DNA of 64,000 nt from an uncultured Halobacteriales archaeon. GTDB lineage: Archaea > Halobacteriota > Halobacteria > Halobacteriales > SKSH01. The position numbers were made by a program, and so were the translations under genes. A model generated the notes under the pieces. That model ran no database searches and was not told the origin of the DNA. It saw nothing but the letters and a program-made list of their open reading frames with translations. The stretch covers positions 109,928 to 173,927 of the forward strand of contig CAZOFG010000001.1 of the NCBI GenBank assembly GCA_964579125.1, read 5' to 3'. Positions 19,806 through 30,075 of this stretch are shown piece by piece (positions within the stretch are counted from its first letter, which is position 1; the number at the start of each line of letters is the position of its first letter).

Positions 19806-21455
19806 TTACGCCTCGAGTTCCTCTGGGGGTGTTCGTTCGTGTCGCTCCACCGCGGCGAGGAAGTGCTCGAACGGCGGGGAGGGGCTACCGGGGCGTGACG
19901 TGAATTCCGGGTGGAACTGCGTTCCGACGAAGAAGGGGTGGTCCGGATATTCGAGGATCTCCATCCGCGGGCCGCTCCAGCCCGAGAAGACCAACCCCGC
20001 GTCGGTGAGGTCATCGATGTACTCGGGATTGACCTCATACCGATGGCGATGCCGCTCGACGCACGTGGTGCCGTCGTAAATCCGAGACGCGAGGGTATCA
20101 GGTTCGATATTGGTCTCGTGGGCGCCGAGGCGCATCGTCCCCCCGAGGTCGTCGACATCCTCCTGTTCGGGGAGGAGATCGATCACCGGATGGTCGGTCT
20201 CCGCCTCGACCTCGGTAGAGTGGGCCCCCTCGAGACCGAGCACGTTGCGAGCGACTTCGACGACGGCCATCTGGAAGCCGAGACATAACCCGAGAAACGG
20301 CGTGTCCGTCCGTCGAGCGTATTCGACGGCGGCGATCTTGCCGTCCGTCCCACGACTACCGAACCCACCCGGGACGACGACTCCCTCCGCCGATTTGAGT
20401 CGGTCGCGGTGGGCTTCGGTCATTTCGTCGCTGGCGACCCACTGCACGTCGACCTCGAGGCCGTGTTCGAAGCCGGCGTGTTTGAGGGCCTCGTGAATCG
20501 ACATGTAGGCGTCCTCGAGCCCGTATTTGCCGACGAGTGCCACCTCGACGCTCCCCGATCGCTCCCGGGTGACGGTCTCACGCCAGCTCTGATCGCGCTC
20601 GGCGGGAGCCAGTGCCTCGTCGGTGAGATCGAGGTGGTCCATCGCGTACTGATCCAGTCCCTCGTCTTCGACGACCAGCGGAACCGTGTAGATATCCTCC
20701 ACGTCCGGATTGGAAAACACCGCCTCAGGCTCGACGTCGCAAAAGAGCGCGATCTTCTCCCGGGTTGATTGCTCGAGGCGGTCCTCACACCGGCCGACGA
20801 GCACGTCCGGTTGGAGACCGATCGAGCGTAACTCCTTCACACTGTGTTGGGTCGGCTTGGTTTTTTGCTCGCCGTTTTTCGAGTACGGGACCAGCGTCAC
20901 GTGCGTGAATAACACGTCCTCTTCGTCCTCCTCGTGGGCGAACTGACGCAACGCTTCGAGAAACGGCATGCCTTCGATGTCCCCGACAGTGCCCCCGACC
21001 TCGACGATACAGACGTCGGTGCCGACCGCCGCTTCGCGAATCCGGCGTTTGATGTCGTCGGTGACGTGGGGGATGATCTGGACGGTCCGCCCGAGGTAAT
21101 CACCCGAGCGTTCCCGGTCGATCACGTGTTGGTAGGTCTTGCCGGTCGTGATGTTGTGATCGGCCGTCATATCGACATCGAGGAAGCGCTCGTAGTTGCC
21201 CAAATCGAGGTCGACTTCGGCCCCGTCTTTGAGCACATACACCTCCCCGTGTTGGTACGGGTTCATCGTGCCGGCGTCGACATTCAGGTAGGGATCGATC
21301 TTCACCGCCGTCACATCGAAGCCCGCGTTCGTGAGCAAGCGACCGATGCTGGCGGCCGTGATTCCCTTGCCGAGCCCCGACATCACCCCGCCGGTGACAA
21401 AAATAAACTTCCGTCCGAGCGACGGGTCATACCCCGTCTCGCGGTCTGCGGGCAT
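19806..21455 (-). CDS. pyrG: CTP synthase
   Basis: [17 protein letters not shown] at the N-terminus and GATase nucleophile [11 protein letters not shown] at 21455 ([11 protein letters not shown]...); the track extension to 21788 is rejected. Confidence 0.95.
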
Positions 21456-21570
21456 ACTGTGTGTGGCGGGCCGTGGACCTAAACCATTTCGACCGGGCAC
21501 GGCGAAAGTGGCGCGGGGTCCGTTCACCCCGGTCGGCACCCTTTTTAGCAACCCCCGGTATCGCACTCCT

Positions 21571-23400
21571 ATGCGGTTGTTGTTTATCCATTCGGACCAC
21601 CTCGAGTTCGAAGCCACCGAGGAAGTCGGTGACATGGCCGAAACCGAGGGGGTCCCGCTTGAGGGTCGATTGGAGGACTGTGTCGCGACGTTCATTAGTG
21701 TCGAAAGCGGCGACGGCAACGATATTGGCGCCGTCGTCGAAAACGCGGCGACAGAAATACGCGATGTCGCCGGGCAGCTGGAGACCACACGCGTCGTCCT
21801 CTATCCTTATGCCCATCTCAGCGACGATCTCGCATCGCCGGATGTCGCCACCGAGGTGCTCCAGCGCCTCGAAACGACCCTCGCCGACGAGTACGAGCTG
21901 TTGCGAGCGCCGTTTGGGTGGTACAAGCGCTTCGAGTTGCACTGTAAGGGCCACCCGCTCTCCGAACTGTCCCGACACGTCAGCGCGGAAATCACCGAAC
22001 GGGACGAGCCGGAAGAGCTGCCGCCGAGTGACTGGACGGTCTGTTTCCCAGACGGTGATCGAGCCGATCCGGAGTCGGCCCGTGCTGCTGTCGGGGATCG
22101 GATGCAAGCACTCATCGACGAGGAGGTCCACGGCGAGGCGGGCACCGGTGGCGAACCGGCTCATCTCTCGCTGATGCAGGAGAAGGCGCTTGTCGGCTAT
22201 GACGAGCTCAGTGACGTGGGGAATCTGCGATGGTATCCCCGCGGCAAGTTGGTCCGCGATCAGTTGATGGACTACGTCACCGACCACGTCATCGAGTACG
22301 GCGGCATGCCGGTCGAGACGCCGATCATGTACGATCTCGATGCACGCGCGATCAGCGAGCACGCCGACAAATTCGGCGAGCGCCAGTACCGCTTCGAAGC
22401 CGGCGATCGCAAGCTCATGTTGCGATTTGCCGCCTGTTTCGGGCAGTTCTCCATCATGCGGGATATGCACATCTCCGCCAACGATCTGCCGCTGCGAATC
22501 TACGAGATGAGCCGGTATTCGTTTCGCCGCGAACAACGCGGCGAGGTGTCCGGGCTGCGGCGACTGCGGGCGTTCACGATGCCGGATATGCACACCGCGA
22601 CCGCGGATGTCGAAGACGCCCTCTCGGAATTCGAGCGCCAGGCCGAACTCGCACTGGCCATCGGTGACGATCTCGCGGTTGGGTATGCCCCCATCTTCCG
22701 GATGACCGAGGACTTTCATGACGAACACCGCGAGTGGGTCGAATCCCTCGTCGCGGACCTGGATACGCCGGTCCTCATCGAGTTGCTCCCCGAGCGCGGC
22801 TATCGCTACTGGGTCGCGAAGATCGACTTCGCCGCCGTCGACAGCACCGGCCGACCCTTCGAGTGCTCGACGGTCCAGATCGACGTCGAAAGTGCGAATC
22901 GCTTCGATATCACCTATACCGATGGCGAGACCGACGCGGCCCCAACGATTCTCCATTATTCGCCCTCCGGTGGCATCGAACGGGTGCTGGCGGCCATCCT
23001 CGAGGACGCGGCAAAGGAATCGACGCCCCAACTGCCCACCTGGCTTTCACCCACGCACGTGCGCTTCATCCCGGTCACGCCCGATGAACACACCGACGCC
23101 TGCCTGGAGTACGCCGAGGACTTACAGACCGCCGGTATCCGGGCGGATGTGGACGAACGGGACGAATCCGTCGGGCGCCGCATTGCCCGCGCCGAAACCG
23201 ACTGGGTGCCGTACTACGTCGTGATCGGCGATCGCGAACTCGAGGGGGACACCATCGGTGTCAACGACCGCACCGCTGACGAGGAACGCGATATGACGCT
23301 CGGGGCCCTCAAGGACGCACTCACCGACGAGTTGGCGCCATTTCCCGACCGGCCGCTGTATCTCCCGACCCGTGTGAGCCGCCACCCGCGTTTCGTCTAG
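21571..23400 (+). CDS. thrS: Threonyl-tRNA synthetase (archaeal type with N-terminal editing domain)
   Basis: [18 protein letters not shown] (archaeal DTD-like editing domain) followed by a class II catalytic core and anticodon-binding domain. ATG at 21571. Confidence 0.95.
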
Positions 23401-24434
23401 CGAGCCGCGCGAACGCCGGTGCCAGCCACCTCGGGATCGAGATCAATGGCACCACCTTCGCGTACGGGTCCATCAAAGGGATCCTCAGCCAGCAGTAACG
23501 ACCCATCGAGGTCGGCGTAATCGAGCATCGGTGCCAGTTGGGCACCCGCGGCGATCGATGCGTTACTCTCGGCCATGCACCCGAGCATCACCTCGAGACC
23601 GTGTGCCCGGGCCGTATGGACCATCCGCCGCGCCTCTAGCAAACCGCCGCATTTCATCAGCTTGAGATTCGCGATGTCGATCGCATCGGCGATGGCCGGG
23701 ATATCCTCGAGCGTGACGCAACTCTCGTCACCGGCGATCGGCAACGGCGAGTGATCACACACCGTCCGGAGGGCGTCCGGGTGTTCTGCCGGAACCGGCT
23801 GCTCGACGAATTCGACGTTATGCTCGGCGAGAAACGTGCACTTGGCGATCGCCTCCTTCGGCCGCCAGGCCTCGTTCGCGTCCACGCGGATGCGCACATC
23901 CGGCGCACTATCGCGAATCGCCGCGATCGCCCGCCGATCGTGGTCCGTACCGAGTTTGACTTTGAGAATGTCATAGCCTGCGTCGACGGCCGCGGCCGCC
24001 CGCTCTGCCATGACCGACGGATCGTCGATGCCGATCGTGTAGGAGGTCTCAACCGGTTCCGAAGGCAATCCCCAGAGGCGATGGAGGGCACAATCCGCCC
24101 GTTTGGCGACCAAGTCATGCAACGCGGTCGAGACTGCCGCTCGGGCAGCCGGGTTTCGTCGGACCGTAGCCTCGAGTTCGTCCTCGATGGCGACGAGGGG
24201 TTCCGGGGTCTCGTAGGTCTCCACGACCGACACCAACGACGGCATGACGGCCGCGACCGTCTCGGCGGTTTCCCCATAATGAGGAGAGGGGCCTGCCCCG
24301 CCGATGCCGGTGTGGCCGGCCTCGTCCGAGATTCGCACGATCACGTTCTCGGTCGCCGTGGTCGTCCCCCGCGCGATCGTAAATGGCCGATCCAACTCGA
24401 GGGTGACTCGCTCGAACGTCGCCGTCAGACTCAT
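23397..24434 (-). CDS. Enolase-superfamily epimerase/racemase (L-Ala-D/L-Glu epimerase-like; DgcA-like)
   Basis: ILKVKLG, RVDANEAW, FVEQP, IAGDES, ANLKLMKCGG are the metal and acid-base motifs of the MLE/AEE subgroup. ATG at 24434 overlaps the upstream gene stop. Confidence 0.85.
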   Translation of the reverse strand: MSLTATFERVTLELDRPFTIARGTTTATENVIVRISDEAGHTGIGGAGPSPHYGETAETVAAVMPSLVSVVETYETPEPLVAIEDELEATVRRNPAARAAVSTALHDLVAKRADCALHRLWGLPSEPVETSYTIGIDDPSVMAERAAAAVDAGYDILKVKLGTDHDRRAIAAIRDSAPDVRIRVDANEAWRPKEAIAKCTFLAEHNVEFVEQPVPAEHPDALRTVCDHSPLPIAGDESCVTLEDIPAIADAIDIANLKLMKCGGLLEARRMVHTARAHGLEVMLGCMAESNASIAAGAQLAPMLDYADLDGSLLLAEDPFDGPVREGGAIDLDPEVAGTGVRAAR

Positions 24435-25429
24435 GGGAGGACCTCCACGAGGGGCGATGGATCGAACCGTACGGGATCGGTACACGGGACCCCCAGTTCG
24501 GCTTCGACCTCCTCAATCGCCGCGCTGGCCGCATCCGACTCGAGTTCACGCGTGTTGAGCGAGACGCCGACGACTTCCGTCGGTGACACCTGTGAGCCCA
24601 GCTCCTCGTACAGGCGGGCTGCCTCGGGAAGATCGGGGAGTGCGAAGGACTCGTAGCCGTGGACCGCCTCACGACCGGCCTCGTGACACAGGACGATTCC
24701 ATCAGGCATCGACCCGTGTAGAATGCTCACGGTCACCCCCGAGTACGCCGGATGGGTGATACTGCCTTGCCCTTCGACGATCACGCGATCGTGCTCGTCG
24801 GCCTGCTGATCGATCATGCGCTCGACCGCTCCGGCGGCGAAATCGCTAATGACCCGATCGACCGCGATGCCCCACCCCTCAATCATGATGCCGGTCTGTC
24901 CGGTCGGGACGACGCCCGCCTCGGGGATCCCTGAAGCAAGCTCCATCGTCGTCGTCATCTTGCCCACCGAACAGTCGGTGCCGACGGTGAGTGTCACTGA
25001 GACGTCAAGGTCACGAACAGCGCCCGAGCTGACGGTGAGATCCGCCGGTGGGCGGCGCACATCGTGGAGCGTGACATCGTACTCGTCGGCGAGCGAGGCG
25101 AATTCGTCGTCCTCGATGAGGAAATAATGCAACCCTGAAATGATATCACACCCACGCTCGATGGCGGTGCGGACATCGGATCGCCAGGATTCCTCGAAGC
25201 CACCCCCAATCGGGGCAATCCCGATGATCAACGCGTCAACGTCCGAAACATCCGCCATGGACGCAACGATCGGTGCATCCTGAACGTCACTAACGTGATC
25301 GCTGACGCGCTCGCCAGTCCGATCGCGATCGAGGACGGCCACCACCTCGTGATCGCTGTAGCGAAGAATGCCGAGGGCGGTTTTCGCCCGCGAGGGGAAC
25401 TGTTCGTGCGCGAGAATGGCCACACGCAT
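24431..25429 (-). CDS. DUF1611-family protein (DgcN-like putative N-acetyltransferase)
   Basis: MRVAILAHEQFPSRAKTALGILRYSDHEVVAVLD.. and GIAPIGG.. resemble DUF1611. Translationally coupled to the epimerase. Confidence 0.8.
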   Translation of the reverse strand: MRVAILAHEQFPSRAKTALGILRYSDHEVVAVLDRDRTGERVSDHVSDVQDAPIVASMADVSDVDALIIGIAPIGGGFEESWRSDVRTAIERGCDIISGLHYFLIEDDEFASLADEYDVTLHDVRRPPADLTVSSGAVRDLDVSVTLTVGTDCSVGKMTTTMELASGIPEAGVVPTGQTGIMIEGWGIAVDRVISDFAAGAVERMIDQQADEHDRVIVEGQGSITHPAYSGVTVSILHGSMPDGIVLCHEAGREAVHGYESFALPDLPEAARLYEELGSQVSPTEVVGVSLNTRELESDAASAAIEEVEAELGVPCTDPVRFDPSPLVEVLP

Positions 25430-25476
25430 ATGGCCGGTCAATGGCCGGGTGTGTATTTAAAACATCAAACCGGCAC

Positions 25477-26382
25477 TTACAGCCGGTACAGCGTGGTCGT
25501 CCAAAACTGCTCGAACGCCTGTTCGAGGGCGTCCTCGGGCGATCCCGAAGCGTCGACCGTAGCGACCGTCGCATCCGACGGAGCCACCGCGTCGATCGCC
25601 TGCTCAGCCCCGGTGACGATCAGTTCCGATGGATCAGCGTCGGCGAGTTGGTCCCGAACGCGGTCGTAATGGGCCTCGATTTGTTCCTCTCGACGGCGTT
25701 CGAAGCGTGACTGTGAGAACCCACCCTTGGAATGGCGCCCCTGCACATCGCTGGTAAAGCCCTCGATATCAACGAGTTCGCCCGCCTCACACTGGCCCCG
25801 GGCGAAGAGATCGTCGCGCACGAGCACGAACGTCCCGGATCGGATCGGCACGAACCACGACCGACTCAACTCGACGTGATCGCTCCAGCCGGCAAAGGGC
25901 GCCGGAGGCCGTGGCGGATCGAGGGCCACCTCCATGAGACCGTACTGATCGAAAATACACAGACACGGAGTCGCATCGGCGACGAGGCCGGCCCGCCCTC
26001 CGAAGTGAGTTCGTACCGCCTCGGGCAGCTCATCAACGACCATGGCGGTGAACACCTCGGCGGCCCCATCACCGTTCCCTTCGATCGTCGCCAATACCTC
26101 CTCGCACTCGCGCCAGTCCAGTCGGGTTCGACCGCGCAGGCTGACCTCCTGATCGCTTCCCCGACGCTCGAGTTCCCCTTCGAGTTGTGCGATGCGATCC
26201 TCGAGGCGATTGACCTCCTCTTGGGCGTTCTGTCGGTCCCTGACTGCCTCCTGTCGGCGCTGATCCGCCGCCTCAAAGCGTCGCTCGAGCTCCGCGAGTT
26301 CGTCCTGACACGCCGCTAACTCGGATTCGAGGCGTTCGATCTCCTCCTTGAGGGCGGCGCGCCCGAGGAGGGAATCTAACAT
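25477..26382 (-). CDS. Coiled-coil protein with eRF1/Vms1-like (VLRF1/baeRF1-type) domain, putative peptidyl-tRNA hydrolase
   Basis: N-terminal ~75-aa heptad-rich segment. C-terminal region has the loop HSKGGFSQSRFERRREE (GGFSQ encoded at 25711-25725), resembling the eRF1 GGQ / Vms1 GxxQ loop followed by RF. Confidence 0.7.
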   Translation of the reverse strand: MLDSLLGRAALKEEIERLESELAACQDELAELERRFEAADQRRQEAVRDRQNAQEEVNRLEDRIAQLEGELERRGSDQEVSLRGRTRLDWRECEEVLATIEGNGDGAAEVFTAMVVDELPEAVRTHFGGRAGLVADATPCLCIFDQYGLMEVALDPPRPPAPFAGWSDHVELSRSWFVPIRSGTFVLVRDDLFARGQCEAGELVDIEGFTSDVQGRHSKGGFSQSRFERRREEQIEAHYDRVRDQLADADPSELIVTGAEQAIDAVAPSDATVATVDASGSPEDALEQAFEQFWTTTLYRL

Positions 26383-26413
26383 CGATGAGACAGACAGGGC
26401 GGGCGCGGTCCTT

Positions 26414-26770
26414 CTAGGTTCCGACGTTGGTCCCGTGCCCGTTGAGCCACATCAACTGCTCGGCGCGGTCTGGCTTCGCCACCAGCACGCCACACTCCGA
26501 TGGGGGATTCTCGATCGACGCGTCCGCCATCACGGACTCCGGCAGCGCGAGGGTGCCCGCGGGGACCGCCTCGTCCCCATGGACGACGAAGTGTCGCTGC
26601 CCCAACTTCATCACGATGGGTCGATCCAATCGGCTAAGTTCGGTCTCGTCGGCGAGCAACTCGTCGTTGACGCGTTCGAGTTGCGCCTGCTGCATAACGG
26701 GGCATTCGTCCGCCGAGGGCGTGACGAAGAGACGACCGATGTAATAGCTGTTCGAGAACTCCTCGAACAT
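26414..26770 (-). CDS. Small conserved hypothetical protein (118 aa)
   Basis: ATG at 26770 (MFEEFSNSYYIGRLFVTP...), acidic soluble protein 31 nt upstream of the Vms1-like gene. The rest of track ORF 26414..27598 is antisense to the regulator gene. Confidence 0.6.
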   Translation of the reverse strand: MFEEFSNSYYIGRLFVTPSADECPVMQQAQLERVNDELLADETELSRLDRPIVMKLGQRHFVVHGDEAVPAGTLALPESVMADASIENPPSECGVLVAKPDRAEQLMWLNGHGTNVGT

Positions 26771-26893
26771 GTGACGGTCTAACGTACCGCCAGTCCCCTT
26801 TATAGTTCTAACGCCGCTGCTCTCACCGGTGATATCCAGCGGGCCGGTCCGGGCAGATACCCTTTTCCCTCCTGATGCATTACCCCCATTCGT

Positions 26894-27547
26894 ATGGAAT
26901 CCGCCGAGCTCTTGGACCTTCTCGGGAACGAGACTCGTCGGAGGATTCTCGCATTGCTTGCGAGAAAGCCCTGTTATGTAACCGAAATCAGCGATGCGAC
27001 CGGCGTGAGTCCAAAGGCCGTCATCGATCACCTCGAGCAACTCGAAGACAACGGGCTCATCGAGTGTCGCCGAACGGACAATCGCCGCAAATACTTCTCG
27101 ATCTGTCAGGCGCAACACCTCGAAGTGACGATCGCACCCCACGAGTTCGGCACCATCAACGGCTATCTGCGCAATCACTCCCTCGATAACGGCCGATTTT
27201 CTCGCCTCGATATCGAGTTCTCGACAGAAACGGAGAGCGAACCGGCCGGTATCATCGAAACCCTCGAGGAGTTGCAGTCGCTCTCGGCCGAACTCTCCCG
27301 CGCACAACGGTTCGTTCACGGCGAGATGAATCGCCTCTATGAGGCCTTCCTCGAGGAGGCCTTCGCCGGCGACGGTGCCCGGCTCGATGTCGACGTCCTG
27401 CTCGCCCTCGAGGACGGCCCTCGGACGCGCCGGGAGTTGGCCAGACAGTTTGGCGTGCCGGCACGGGCCATCGATCGCTGCCTGCAGCGACTCTCGAGAG
27501 CGGACCTGGTGGAAGATACGCCTGACGGCTGGGCGCGCGCCATTTGA
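26894..27547 (+). CDS. ArsR-family transcriptional regulator with a second C-terminal wHTH
   Basis: N-terminal LLGNETRRRILALLARKPCYVTEISDATGVSPKAVIDHLEQLEDNGLI, a central helical segment, then C-terminal LLALEDGPRTRRELARQFGVPARAIDRCLQRLSRADLV. Confidence 0.8.
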   Translation: MESAELLDLLGNETRRRILALLARKPCYVTEISDATGVSPKAVIDHLEQLEDNGLIECRRTDNRRKYFSICQAQHLEVTIAPHEFGTINGYLRNHSLDNGRFSRLDIEFSTETESEPAGIIETLEELQSLSAELSRAQRFVHGEMNRLYEAFLEEAFAGDGARLDVDVLLALEDGPRTRRELARQFGVPARAIDRCLQRLSRADLVEDTPDGWARAI

Positions 27548-27596
27548 TCGGGTGAAACCGTATCGCTTGAATGGGAGGGTGACCAACCGAAGAGCC

Positions 27597-28841
27597 ATGC
27601 AACCGGGCGATCGCGTCGCCGTCGAGACGCCGACGGCAGCCTACGAGGGGATCGTGATGCCGTCGACGACGGCCGAGGAACTCGTGCTGAAAGAGCCCGA
27701 CGGCTACAATGTCGGGATCAATCGCGGCGAGGCGGCAGTCGACGTCCTCGAACGGGACGTCTACGCCATCGAGTCGGAGACGGACGACTCCGACGCGGGA
27801 GCCGTTACCTTTGACGACGATCTCCCTGAAATCGCTCTGATCAGCACCGGTGGGACGATCGCCTCCACGGTCGATTACCGAACCGGTGCGGTAACAGCTC
27901 AGTTCGATGCCGAAGACGTCCTCAAGGCCGTTCCCGAACTGTCCGGTCGAGCGAACTACCGCGGCCGGGTCGTTGCGAACATTCTCTCGGAGAACATGAC
28001 GCCGGCGGTATGGCAGGATCTCGCCGAGGCGATTTATGACGAACTCACCGCTGGGGTCGACGGCATCGTCGTCATGCATGGGACCGATACGATGCAGTAC
28101 ACGGCGAGTGCGATCTCGTTCATGATCGACACGCCCGTCCCGATCGTGTTTACCGGGAGTCAACGCTCGGCGGATCGTCCCTCGAGTGACAATGTGATGA
28201 ACGCCGTCTCCGCGGTTGAGGCGGCCAAGGCCGATGCCGCGGGAGTCTTCGTCTGTATGCACGCCACCGAGAGCGACGACCGCTGTGCCCTCCATCGAGG
28301 CACCCGAGTGCGCAAAAACCACACGAGCCGTCGGGATGCCTTCGAGACGGTCGGGGAGTTCCCGATCGGGTGGGTCGAGTTCGGTGACGATACCGTCAGC
28401 TTCGACCGACCCGTGCCCGCCCGGGACGAGGTGGCACCAGCTCTCACCCCTGACCTCGAACCGAATGTCGAATTGGTGAAGTTCACCCCTGGAATGAACC
28501 CGGACGTCTACGATCGCCTCGCGGATCGCGCGGGCGTGGTCATCGAAGGAACCGGCCTCGGCCACGTCCACACCGATCACATCGAACACGTGGCGGCACT
28601 GATCGAGGATGGGACGCCCGTCGTTATGACGAGTCAGTGCCTGGAAGGACGGGTGTGCGATCGCGTGTACGATACTGGGCGTGATTTGCTTGAGGCGGGC
28701 GTGATCGAGGGTGAGAACATGCTGCCGGAGACGGCCTACGTCAAACTCATGTGGGCGCTCGCCAACAGCGATGCGATCGCTGAGACGATGCGTACGCCGA
28801 TCGCCGGCGAACTCACCGAACGTAGCGTGCCGTGGCGATGA
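27597..28841 (+). CDS. gatD: Glutamyl-tRNA(Gln) amidotransferase subunit D
   Basis: N-terminal AYEGIVMP...DGYNVGI domain plus asparaginase-like LISTGGTIAS and VVMHGTDTM. ATG at 27597. Confidence 0.93.
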   Translation: MQPGDRVAVETPTAAYEGIVMPSTTAEELVLKEPDGYNVGINRGEAAVDVLERDVYAIESETDDSDAGAVTFDDDLPEIALISTGGTIASTVDYRTGAVTAQFDAEDVLKAVPELSGRANYRGRVVANILSENMTPAVWQDLAEAIYDELTAGVDGIVVMHGTDTMQYTASAISFMIDTPVPIVFTGSQRSADRPSSDNVMNAVSAVEAAKADAAGVFVCMHATESDDRCALHRGTRVRKNHTSRRDAFETVGEFPIGWVEFGDDTVSFDRPVPARDEVAPALTPDLEPNVELVKFTPGMNPDVYDRLADRAGVVIEGTGLGHVHTDHIEHVAALIEDGTPVVMTSQCLEGRVCDRVYDTGRDLLEAGVIEGENMLPETAYVKLMWALANSDAIAETMRTPIAGELTERSVPWR

Positions 28842-29799: not shown

Positions 29800-30075
29800 T
29801 TACCCGCCGCTGATGGGTGGGAACAACGCCAACTCGGCATCGTCACCGACCGCCTGGTCGAAGCCACCACCATCGGTTTGAACGGGTTCGCCGTTATGGA
29901 GAAGCGTCACGTGCGCTGGTAACTCTAAATCCGCTCCGAGCTCGTCAGCGAGACCCGGCTCGGCCTCGAGCAAGGCGGACAACGCATCAGCGACCGTTTC
30001 GACGTCATCGCTCGGAATCGAAACCCTGGTCGCATCGGCCGCCTCGGCGAATTCGCCGAAGAGTCTCCATTCCAT
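29800..30075 (-). CDS. samp1: Small archaeal modifier protein, MoaD/ThiS-type ubiquitin-like (SAMP1-like)
   Basis: 91 aa starting MEWRLFGEFAEAA... and ending ...ELALFPPISGG with a C-terminal di-glycine. Close to my recollection of Haloferax SAMP1 (MEWKLFADLAEVAG...ELALFPPVSGG). Confidence 0.85.
   Translation of the reverse strand: MEWRLFGEFAEAADATRVSIPSDDVETVADALSALLEAEPGLADELGADLELPAHVTLLHNGEPVQTDGGGFDQAVGDDAELALFPPISGG

Follow-up and report, generated by a model that had tools for sequence, protein, structure and literature searches.

A haloarchaeal member of the aVLRF-1 family, its usual neighbour DUF5802 and a promoter-like box at their junction

The window considered here is a stretch of 64,000 nucleotides (nt) from an uncultured archaeon of the Halobacteriales (assembly GCA_964579125.1, contig CAZOFG010000001.1, positions 109,928 to 173,927 of the forward strand); it is haloarchaeal in its base composition (61.7% G+C), in its acidic proteins and in its homologues, every organism-named one of which comes from Halobacteria. 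Two genes on its minus strand are the subject of this analysis. The first, at 26414-26770, codes for a protein of 118 amino acids (aa) plus stop that belongs to the family DUF5802 (Pfam PF19118), as indicated by Pfam, an AlphaFold2 (AF2) model and Foldseek; the second, at 25477-26382, codes for a 301-aa protein plus stop, which its open reading frame (ORF), Pfam, the names of its orthologues, AF2 and Foldseek assign to the VLRF-1 proteins of archaea (aVLRF-1), a family related to the release factor eRF1 and to Vms1/ANKZF1. The intergenic gap measures 31 nt (26383-26413). An initial annotation, made from the sequence alone, had described the pair as an operon, in which a putative peptidyl-tRNA hydrolase would be accompanied by a small acidic partner or adaptor; both reading frames, the gap, the heptad-rich N-terminus of the larger protein and its segment HSKGGFSQSRFERRR were all found where it had placed them.

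Both proteins have a computed isoelectric point of 4.45, so that the acidic character ascribed to the smaller one is confirmed, and their Pfam matches (E = 3.8e-28 for the 301-aa and 2.1e-41 for the 118-aa protein) are far beyond chance. The mechanical ORF of the 118-aa protein extends to 27598, beyond the ATG at 26770; this ATG is nevertheless the true start, because an MFE N-terminus is present in 40 of the 40 aligned family members and because a divergent helix-turn-helix (HTH) gene fills positions 26894-27547. ORFs also run antisense to both genes (e.g., 25732-26319 on the plus strand), but we take them for artefacts of the high GC content, since the minus-strand frames have strong family matches. 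No Rfam family and no tRNA was detected between 20 and 32 kb of the window.

The best Pfam model for the 301-aa protein is acVLRF1 (PF18859), which matches residues 185-298 and scores 98.7 bits, its cut-off being 27.1; baeRF_family10 (3.9e-9) and eRF1_2 (5e-4) were matched less strongly, while the NCBIfam acVLRF1 model (NF041024) gives 44.6 bits, below its cut-off of 125. In several sources, NCBI included, the orthologues are named “Vms1/Ankzf1 family peptidyl-tRNA hydrolase”. Relatives occur in at least 505 species genomes, and all the lineage-named ones among the 80 listed are haloarchaea; aVLRF-1 belongs to the core genes of Halobacteria. No relative was found in a phage collection.

Three parts can be distinguished in the AF2 model of the protein, whose mean predicted local distance difference test score (pLDDT) is 89.1. 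The N-terminal arm (residues 1-77, 26152-26382, minus strand as all features of the two genes) is a single predicted helix from residue 2 to 77, in which the conserved hydrophobic residues show a Fourier power of 8.6 at a period of 3.5 residues, against at most 5.2 elsewhere; a 7-residue indel, which corresponds to one heptad, separates the orthologues and therefore fits a coiled coil. The heptad-rich character that the initial annotation had seen in the first 75 residues or so is thus borne out. The middle domain (residues ~80-180, 25843-26145) is a confidently modelled alpha/beta unit, and by its position it would correspond to the N (“stop-codon-binding”) domain of eRF1; the Foldseek alignments to eRF1 cover about 260 columns, and hence extend beyond the catalytic domain, although Pfam gives no eRF1_1 match and the equivalence of the two domains is taken from the published description of the family (Burroughs & Aravind 2019, PMC6514570). 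The third part (residues ~183-301, 25480-25836) is the predicted catalytic domain, with an RNase H fold resembling the eRF1 M domain according to Pfam, profile comparison and Foldseek.

When the model was compared with the Protein Data Bank (PDB) by Foldseek, eRF1 was the best match (3e-7), and Balon (ranks 10, 16-18, 20 and 21, with E from 6e-6 to 8e-5), aRF1 and Pelota were found as well; yeast Vms1 bound to the 60S subunit (6r84_R) was also retrieved, at 2e-3. The catalytic domain aligns with 2hst and 8hku_ARF1 over about 129 columns, with a root-mean-square deviation of 4-5 Å. These fold matches, together with the Pfam assignment and a profile match at 3e-6, sustain the relationship to eRF1 and Vms1 that had been proposed from the sequence. 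The protein stops right after the M-like domain, and it contains no eRF1/Pelota C-terminal domain (no eRF1_3 Pfam match). Rei1-type zinc finger, ankyrin repeats and treble-clef are not among its Pfam matches, and no VIM motif (R-x5-AA-x2-R) was seen on inspection of the sequence, coiled coil included.

An alignment of 20 orthologues, which are 46-56% identical to the window protein, allowed the identification of the residues under the strongest constraint. H217, S218, K219, G220, G221, S223 and Q224, i.e., HSKGG(F/Y)SQ, are invariant in all 20 sequences, and so are R226, F227, E228, R229 and R231, while R230 is kept in at least 90% of them. The loop GGFSQ, with the putative catalytic Gln224, therefore corresponds to residues 220-224 (25711-25725), exactly at the position initially reported, and it matches the family motif GGxSQ; it is followed by the start of an Arg-rich helix, RFERRR (residues 226-231, 25690-25707). 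Conservation of the GxxQ loop among orthologues, on which the first proposal depended, thus extends to the glutamine and the following RFERxR. The loop is a flexible, low-confidence part of the model (pLDDT 63 at residues 211-220). A profile built from the 20 orthologues retrieved aRF1/eRF1 M domains among all PDB sequences at 3.1e-6 to 7e-4, with residues 177-242 aligned; HskGGfSQaRFER is placed over H..GGQSQrR.ER of aRF1, and both glycines coincide. Judged from sequence and modelled fold, the 301-aa protein is a haloarchaeal member of aVLRF-1, and an ordinary one for that family.

The aVLRF-1 family was defined computationally by Burroughs & Aravind 2019 (PMC6514570), whose main text describes it by a long coiled-coil extension, the absence of the Pelota C-domain and the GGxSQ motif. 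According to the same text, aVLRF-1 and acVLRF-1 both “carry a GGxSQ motif”, the conserved Arg in the helix after the loop is a feature of the aeRF-1 superfamily, said to bind large-subunit rRNA, and the prokaryotic VLRF-1 proteins are regarded as stand-alone. The window protein has in common with the published family the coiled coil, a candidate domain in the place of eRF1-N, the domain with RNase H fold, the lack of a C domain, the GGxSQ motif and the helix Arg, and itself shows no difference. Family, architecture and motif are hence already published, and the names in the databases already match; the initial annotation was aware of surveys of prokaryotic VLRF1 proteins, but it missed that aVLRF-1 itself had been described. 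No further papers on VLRF-1 families were found in a full-text search that was thin on subscription journals.

The acVLRF1 proteins of Actinobacteria and Chloroflexi, which provide the best-scoring Pfam model, share GGxSQ with the window protein; however, acVLRF-1 is described in the main text of PMC6514570 as having lost the N domain and as carrying a short distinctive N-terminal extension, whereas the window protein has a coiled coil and an extra domain. It is therefore probably not acVLRF1 proper, given this different architecture and the NCBIfam score below cut-off. With Vms1/ANKZF1 it shares the clade, the catalytic domain, the GxxQ-type loop and the Arg-rich helix and, by analogy, the likely substrate, i.e., large subunits carrying peptidyl-tRNA; it does not belong to that eukaryotic family, however, whose accessory parts (Rei1-type zinc finger, ankyrin repeats, treble-clef and VIM) it lacks, and a coiled coil forms its N-terminus instead. 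The eukaryotic VLRF-1 proteins are said, in the same text, to derive from the bacterial bVLRF-1 and not from the archaeal family (PMC6514570). The M domain of aRF1/eRF1, the best fold match, is homologous; however, the window protein lacks the C domain, so that no coupling to aEF1-alpha/eRF3 is predicted, its glutamine comes two residues later, F/Y standing where GGQ has its own, and it has the coiled-coil arm in addition. By the same comparison, recognition of stop codons would not be expected of it.

How such a protein might work can be outlined from its relatives. It is through the C-terminal domain that eRF1 and Pelota are coupled to GTPases; aVLRF-1, which has no such domain, would therefore act without a GTPase. 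By analogy, archaeal Vms1/eRF1-like factors probably free unfinished proteins from stalled ribosomes, and aVLRF-1 would do so independently of both GTPase and stop codon, its targets being stalled ribosomal complexes that still carry peptidyl-tRNA and, most plausibly, the 50S-peptidyl-tRNA particles left by Pelota/ABCE1 splitting. The coiled coil may be a dimerisation or a ribosome-docking arm, the Arg-rich helix would contact 23S rRNA, and the GGxSQ loop would enter the peptidyl-transferase centre, for Gln224 to promote the release of the nascent chain there.

The chain could also be freed by cutting the tRNA, with removal of its 3′ CCA end, instead of by ester hydrolysis; aVLRF-1 would then be a nuclease, and its products would need CCA repair. 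This would agree with its place in the same VLRF-1 clade as Vms1/ANKZF1, with the RNase H fold of the catalytic domain and with a Gln that stands apart from the two glycines, as it does in the GxxQ of the Vms1 type but not in GGQ. Nuclease activity has reportedly been observed for mammalian ANKZF1 and yeast Vms1. The main text of PMC6514570 mentions the hydrolase-versus-nuclease controversy on Vms1/ANKZF1; however, it reads the retention of both glycines, as in GGxSQ, as a continuum with the hydrolase motifs, and tRNA cleavage by aVLRF-1 appears rather unlikely to us.

The fold matches to Balon raise a different question, namely whether aVLRF-1 may be a non-catalytic factor of ribosome occupancy or hibernation, which, like this bacterial protein, would under stress occupy the A site of ribosomes that are idle. 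The Balon structures are indeed among the best matches; however, aVLRF-1 lacks the C-terminal domain, the one by which Balon contacts EF-Tu. A link between the related baeRF-1 genes and hibernation factor genes is described in the main text of PMC6514570, but the same text notes that inactive baeRF-1 families are typically devoid of the Gln, which is invariant in aVLRF-1 together with the surrounding loop. A hibernation role is thus very improbable, and release of the nascent chain by Gln224 remains the preferred activity.

The smaller protein matches PF19118 with 141 bits, against a cut-off of 28.9, over profile positions 1-110 of 113, and an alignment of 40 DUF5802 members contains 22 invariant columns. 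More than 1,300 close relatives are found in Halobacteria; a profile search among 1.84 billion representative sequences gave 184 clusters, and the best 150 of these consist without exception of small proteins (43-240 aa) that stand alone. No paper mentioning DUF5802 was found in the full-text search, with its thin coverage of subscription journals, and the main text of PMC6514570 does not report DUF5802 as a neighbour of aVLRF-1.

An AF2 model obtained from the 40-sequence alignment (pLDDT 82.7) consists of two successive b-b-a-b units followed by a C-terminal helix. The top 50 or so PDB matches found by Foldseek are the N-domains of p97/Cdc48 and NSF, Ufd1, a mycobacterial AAA protein and designed double-psi beta-barrel proteins (E from 3e-4 to 2e-3, TM score about 0.5, identity 15-19%). 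DUF5802 is accordingly predicted, on the basis of this model, to be a double-psi beta-barrel, most like the N-domain of Cdc48/p97 and Ufd1. The likeness to the barrels of Cdc48/p97/VAT, NSF and Ufd1 lies at the level of the fold only, with no match in sequence: the DUF5802 profile gave only chance helical-repeat matches against all PDB sequences (E <= 10), no second Pfam family, CDC48_N included, was detected at E <= 0.1, and no internal repeat emerged when the two halves were compared by hhalign (probability 0.2%). DUF5802 moreover differs from Cdc48/p97/VAT-type proteins in having neither the second (Nc) subdomain nor an ATPase. A Cdc48 gene, sought for a CDC48_N profile in the DNA gathered for the analysis, was not found there.

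In the viral structure library BFVD the DUF5802 model is best matched by uncharacterised halovirus proteins, namely one of Halogranum tailed virus 1 (HGTV-1), with a TM score of 0.77 and E = 1.4e-10, and those from Haloarcula californiae tailed virus 1 and Halorubrum tailed phage 8; giant-virus Ufd1, AAA N-domains and RNA-polymerase barrels come after them. HGTV-1 gp004 was also retrieved by tblastn (8e-4) and by the DUF5802 profile (29.7 bits); annotated as hypothetical, it lies at 1572-1940 of NC_021328.1 (locus L089), between the genes of the small and large terminase subunits. The same position is occupied by DUF5802 relatives on two metagenomic contigs (L087, 4001-4333; L088, 1353-1685), where a portal gene follows. 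This conserved place of the viral relatives within the packaging module is noted here without explanation. A further relative comes from soda-lake brine, where a contig of 25% GC carries it (L085/L086, 4001-4300) beside genes for Sec61-beta and HerA/KaiC-like ATPases; another one, on a 60%-GC contig (L084, 4001-4324), has for neighbours RadA-like, AAA_24 and RelA/SpoT-domain genes matching phage families. VLRF1 is absent from all the inspected loci of these divergent relatives; the 339-aa and 244-aa proteins encoded downstream of divergent DUF5802 genes were considered and are not VLRF1-like. A scan of IMG/VR with DUF5802 patterns yielded no relative, and the phage collection, searched with the metagenomic viral homologue and with HGTV-1 gp004, returned only HGTV-1 itself. 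The predicted barrel fold of DUF5802 and its virus-borne relatives are both new observations.

These relatives bear on the function of DUF5802, which may have nothing to do with translation: it could be a generic small barrel binding nucleic acids or proteins, as other cradle-loop barrels do, shared with viruses and lying beside aVLRF-1 by inherited gene order. The homologues between the terminase genes of HGTV-1 and of the metagenomic virus contigs, and the relative next to Sec61-beta on the 25%-GC contig, would be in keeping with such a role; positive evidence for any other function was, however, not obtained.

The association of the two genes was quantified starting from each of them, in a sample of 80 genome loci centred on aVLRF-1, 78 of which had enough upstream sequence, and in one of 80 metagenome loci centred on DUF5802, 74 of which were informative. 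In the former, DUF5802 is adjacent and on the same strand, with a gap of 24-144 nt, in 53 of the 78 loci, and it is 0.3-3.5 kb away in 7 more; in the latter, aVLRF-1 comes directly next in 50 of the 74, is found 0.4-1.5 kb downstream in 6 and has no copy within about 3 kb in 15. Adjacency thus amounts to 68% from either gene, and the link is therefore real and predominant. The two genes, however, are part of a longer syntenic block comprising gatD, HTH_Cmi2, DUF5802, aVLRF-1, DUF1611 and an enolase-superfamily epimerase; DUF1611, an enzyme gene of unrelated function, is directly downstream of aVLRF-1 in about 37 of the 80 loci (~46%) and within 3.1 kb in 52 of them, and HTH_Cmi2 and gatD are conserved too, so that the adjacency of the two genes does not clearly exceed what synteny within the block would give.

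The two genes are also found apart. In Salinarchaeum chitinilyticum the upstream neighbours of DUF5802 (a 345-aa gene and HTH_Cmi2) are retained and CheF-domain genes follow it, while in four other Salinarchaeum assemblies aVLRF-1 comes after a serA-like dehydrogenase ORF; it follows a permease in Halodesulfurarchaeum and other genes in Haladaptatus. In 16 further genome loci, some of them from these last two genera, no DUF5802 lies within 6 kb of aVLRF-1. Of the co-occurrence that the first proposal implied, the frequency stands, whereas the excess over block synteny is small and the split loci of Salinarchaeum count against it. For a DUF5802 unrelated to translation, these data cut both ways: in S. 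chitinilyticum it is CheF-domain genes and not aVLRF-1 that follow the conserved upstream neighbours, but its adjacency to aVLRF-1, at 68%, is the most conserved link of the whole block. With the viral relatives taken into account, we regard this explanation as possible, though doubtful.

A single case of fusion was encountered, i.e., a 444-aa in-frame DUF5802-aVLRF-1 protein (P0118; locus L081, 1138-2472) called on a 2.9-kb metagenome contig with 2x coverage. A short linker replaces the C-terminal helix of DUF5802, and no other frame restores the helix; the call reflects either a real deletion-fusion or an assembly error. As evidence of a link it was rejected, in view of the single 2x contig, the loss of the helix and the absence of fusions in 160 other loci.

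The 31-nt gap itself can be read in terms of promoter elements. A box resembling a B recognition element (BRE) followed by a TATA element, CGGAACCTAGAAG, lies at 26411-26423 on the minus strand, 29-41 nt upstream of the ATG of aVLRF-1, and was recognised from the sequence and from A/T statistics over many loci. The DUF5802 stop codon TAG (26414-26416) falls inside this box, which from 26423 to 26411 reads CGGAACC-TAG-AAG. Across loci the A/T content peaks at -31 to -27 from the aVLRF-1 ATG; an A/T-rich hexamer at -36 to -23 is present in 81% of 98 distinct loci with adjacent DUF5802 and in 57% of 28 loci where it is not adjacent, compared to 1-11% in control windows. The hexamer often comes after a CGGAAC-like BRE, the box is also visible where serA or a permease precedes aVLRF-1, and it contains the stop codon of DUF5802 in roughly half of the adjacent loci. 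The Gly-Thr with which DUF5802 proteins often end (encoded by GGA ACC in the window) falls on the BRE-like CGGAAC, and coding and promoter bases are thus shared.

According to PMC4983044, such BRE and TATA elements are found in haloarchaeal promoters, and leaderless mRNAs make up 72% of the protein-coding transcripts of Haloferax. Since the stop codon of DUF5802 lies inside the conserved box, aVLRF-1 probably has its own promoter; the most likely arrangement, as far as can be judged from the DNA, is an own promoter and a leaderless mRNA. Because the end of DUF5802 overlaps the box, the modal gap of 24-31 nt corresponds to a TATA-to-start distance and not to operon packing, and the operon label of the initial annotation is probably wrong, the conserved TATA-like box being found before aVLRF-1 with or without DUF5802. 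DUF5802 in turn has a likely promoter of its own, a TATAAA at 26799-26804 on the minus strand, 29-34 nt upstream of its ATG; over 132 distinct loci a conserved A/T peak (up to 94% A/T) occurs at -36 to -32 from the DUF5802 starts. This separate promoter-like box is a further point in favour of a function of DUF5802 outside translation. A possible transcript end is marked by a hairpin over the stop codon of aVLRF-1 followed by a T-rich run (25459-25487, minus strand), a weak candidate from a consensus scan, which places the terminator-like site at 25487-25469 with the tail TTGATGTTTT; the T/A-rich run may also serve as the TATA box of DUF1611. A scan of the region for sigma-70 promoters, whose consensus is irrelevant for archaea, found nothing.

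Against this background, DUF5802 and aVLRF-1 may be considered as a functional unit of two proteins, in which the barrel would act as an adaptor on the coiled-coil arm, on the nascent chain or on a ubiquitin-like tag. The same strand and direct adjacency in 68% of loci from either gene argue for it, and so do the age of an arrangement old enough for the DUF5802 stop codon to lie within the aVLRF-1 promoter box, the one in-frame fusion called in a metagenome and the resemblance of the predicted DUF5802 fold to the protein-binding N-domains of Cdc48/p97 and Ufd1, eukaryotic Vms1 being a Cdc48 partner according to the main text of PMC6514570. However, adjacency is close to the synteny of the block, aVLRF-1 appears to have its own promoter, the genes occupy separate loci in Salinarchaeum and lie apart in the 16 further ones, the divergent DUF5802 relatives have no VLRF1 nearby, and the fusion, lacking the DUF5802 helix, comes from a single 2x contig; in addition, the prokaryotic VLRF-1 proteins are regarded as stand-alone in the text just cited. 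The two proteins may thus be functionally linked, but a unit formed by them is more doubtful than probable, and the partner or adaptor role given to the small protein by the initial annotation does not hold up well against near-background adjacency, split loci and VLRF1-free relatives; the operon-with-adaptor reading is weakly supported. It is quite unlikely, in our opinion, that DUF5802 is a stand-alone Cdc48-N/Ufd1-like barrel working with aVLRF-1, which would hold the released chain or a SAMP tag, or dock on the coiled coil. If this were true, haloarchaea would possess a minimal module of release plus handover, parallel to the eukaryotic Vms1-Cdc48/Ufd1 system, and haloarchaeal tailed viruses would carry diverged barrel copies.

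The interpretation that we favour is that the 301-aa protein is an aVLRF-1 release factor, that DUF5802 is a separate, usually adjacent gene for a double-psi beta-barrel, and that the release factor is under its own promoter; taken jointly, these statements are fairly probable. Several points weigh against them. The position of the GGQ glutamine is held by F/Y222, with the invariant Q224 two residues further on, so that catalytic equivalence rests on the Vms1-type GxxQ arrangement and not on GGQ identity, and substrate and chemistry of aVLRF-1 are proposed by analogy. The case for the promoter comes from sequence statistics, the box in the window (CTAGAAG) is a weak TATA, and read-through from DUF5802 could add a bicistronic mRNA. 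Finally, no experimental paper on any archaeal VLRF-1 member was found in a literature search thin on subscription journals, in agreement with the initial annotation, which had described these members as experimentally uncharacterised.

The surrounding genes complete the picture of the locus. Directly downstream of aVLRF-1, at 23397-25441 on the minus strand, are the genes for a DUF1611 protein of two domains and for an epimerase of the enolase superfamily, whose mechanical ORFs overlap by 55 nt; the best NCBIfam models, DgcN for the DUF1611 protein (267 versus 480 bits) and DgcA for the epimerase (251 versus 400 bits), are both far below cut-off. Some half of the haloarchaeal loci have the pair conserved beside aVLRF-1, and it probably serves dipeptide or D-amino-acid metabolism, unrelated to translation. 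On the other side, a divergent regulator of the ArsR/Cmi2 type with two winged helices (HTH_5 and HTH_Cmi2_C), located at 26894-27547 on the plus strand, is followed by gatD; its best NCBIfam model is the heat-shock regulator Phr, below cut-off. The mechanical ORF of gatD (27339-28841, plus strand) starts 209 nt inside the regulator, and its GatD_N match begins at residue 87; for both reasons the true start is probably further downstream.

In the window the regulator directly abuts DUF5802, while in the two loci inspected from Halopiger xanaduensis and Salinarchaeum chitinilyticum a gene of 345-406 aa, divergent from DUF5802, lies between the two (L082, 3433-4653, and L083, 3549-4586, both on the minus strand); it has no significant Pfam match, with a below-threshold Collagen match in L082. 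About 3 kb upstream of DUF5802, on the same strand, a 91-aa ORF (29800-30075, minus strand) belongs to the ThiS/MoaD family (PF02597, 6.8e-9) and ends in PPISGG; it is a ubiquitin-like beta-grasp protein of the SAMP type with a C-terminal di-glycine, kept in the region in 12 of 80 related loci. The ORF at 21331-23400 on the plus strand is one that we take, from its sequence and ahead of any comparison with family libraries, to encode a threonyl-tRNA synthetase; the mechanical GTG start at 21331 adds a low-complexity stretch rich in Pro and Arg, and translation probably begins at a Met further on. Together with gatD, this putative synthetase loosely places aVLRF-1 in a translation-related neighbourhood.

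Since the candidacy of aVLRF-1 has been in print since 2019 and is already reflected in NCBI product names, the window adds an orthologue and not a new idea. The contributions made here are the predicted fold of DUF5802, its virus-borne relatives and the reading of the 24-31-nt spacing as a promoter placed over a stop codon, which should temper arguments based on guilt by association. The parallel between the DUF5802 barrel and the Vms1-Cdc48 system is attractive, though weakly supported. As for the release factor itself, archaea possess Pelota/ABCE1 and a homologue of Rqc2/NEMF and, to our knowledge, have neither Ltn1 nor a characterised release step that would clear the peptidyl-tRNA from split large subunits. 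Haloferax and Halobacterium are genetically tractable and aVLRF-1 is a core haloarchaeal gene, and the question of this step is therefore directly testable, aVLRF-1 being the obvious candidate for the archaeal release step.

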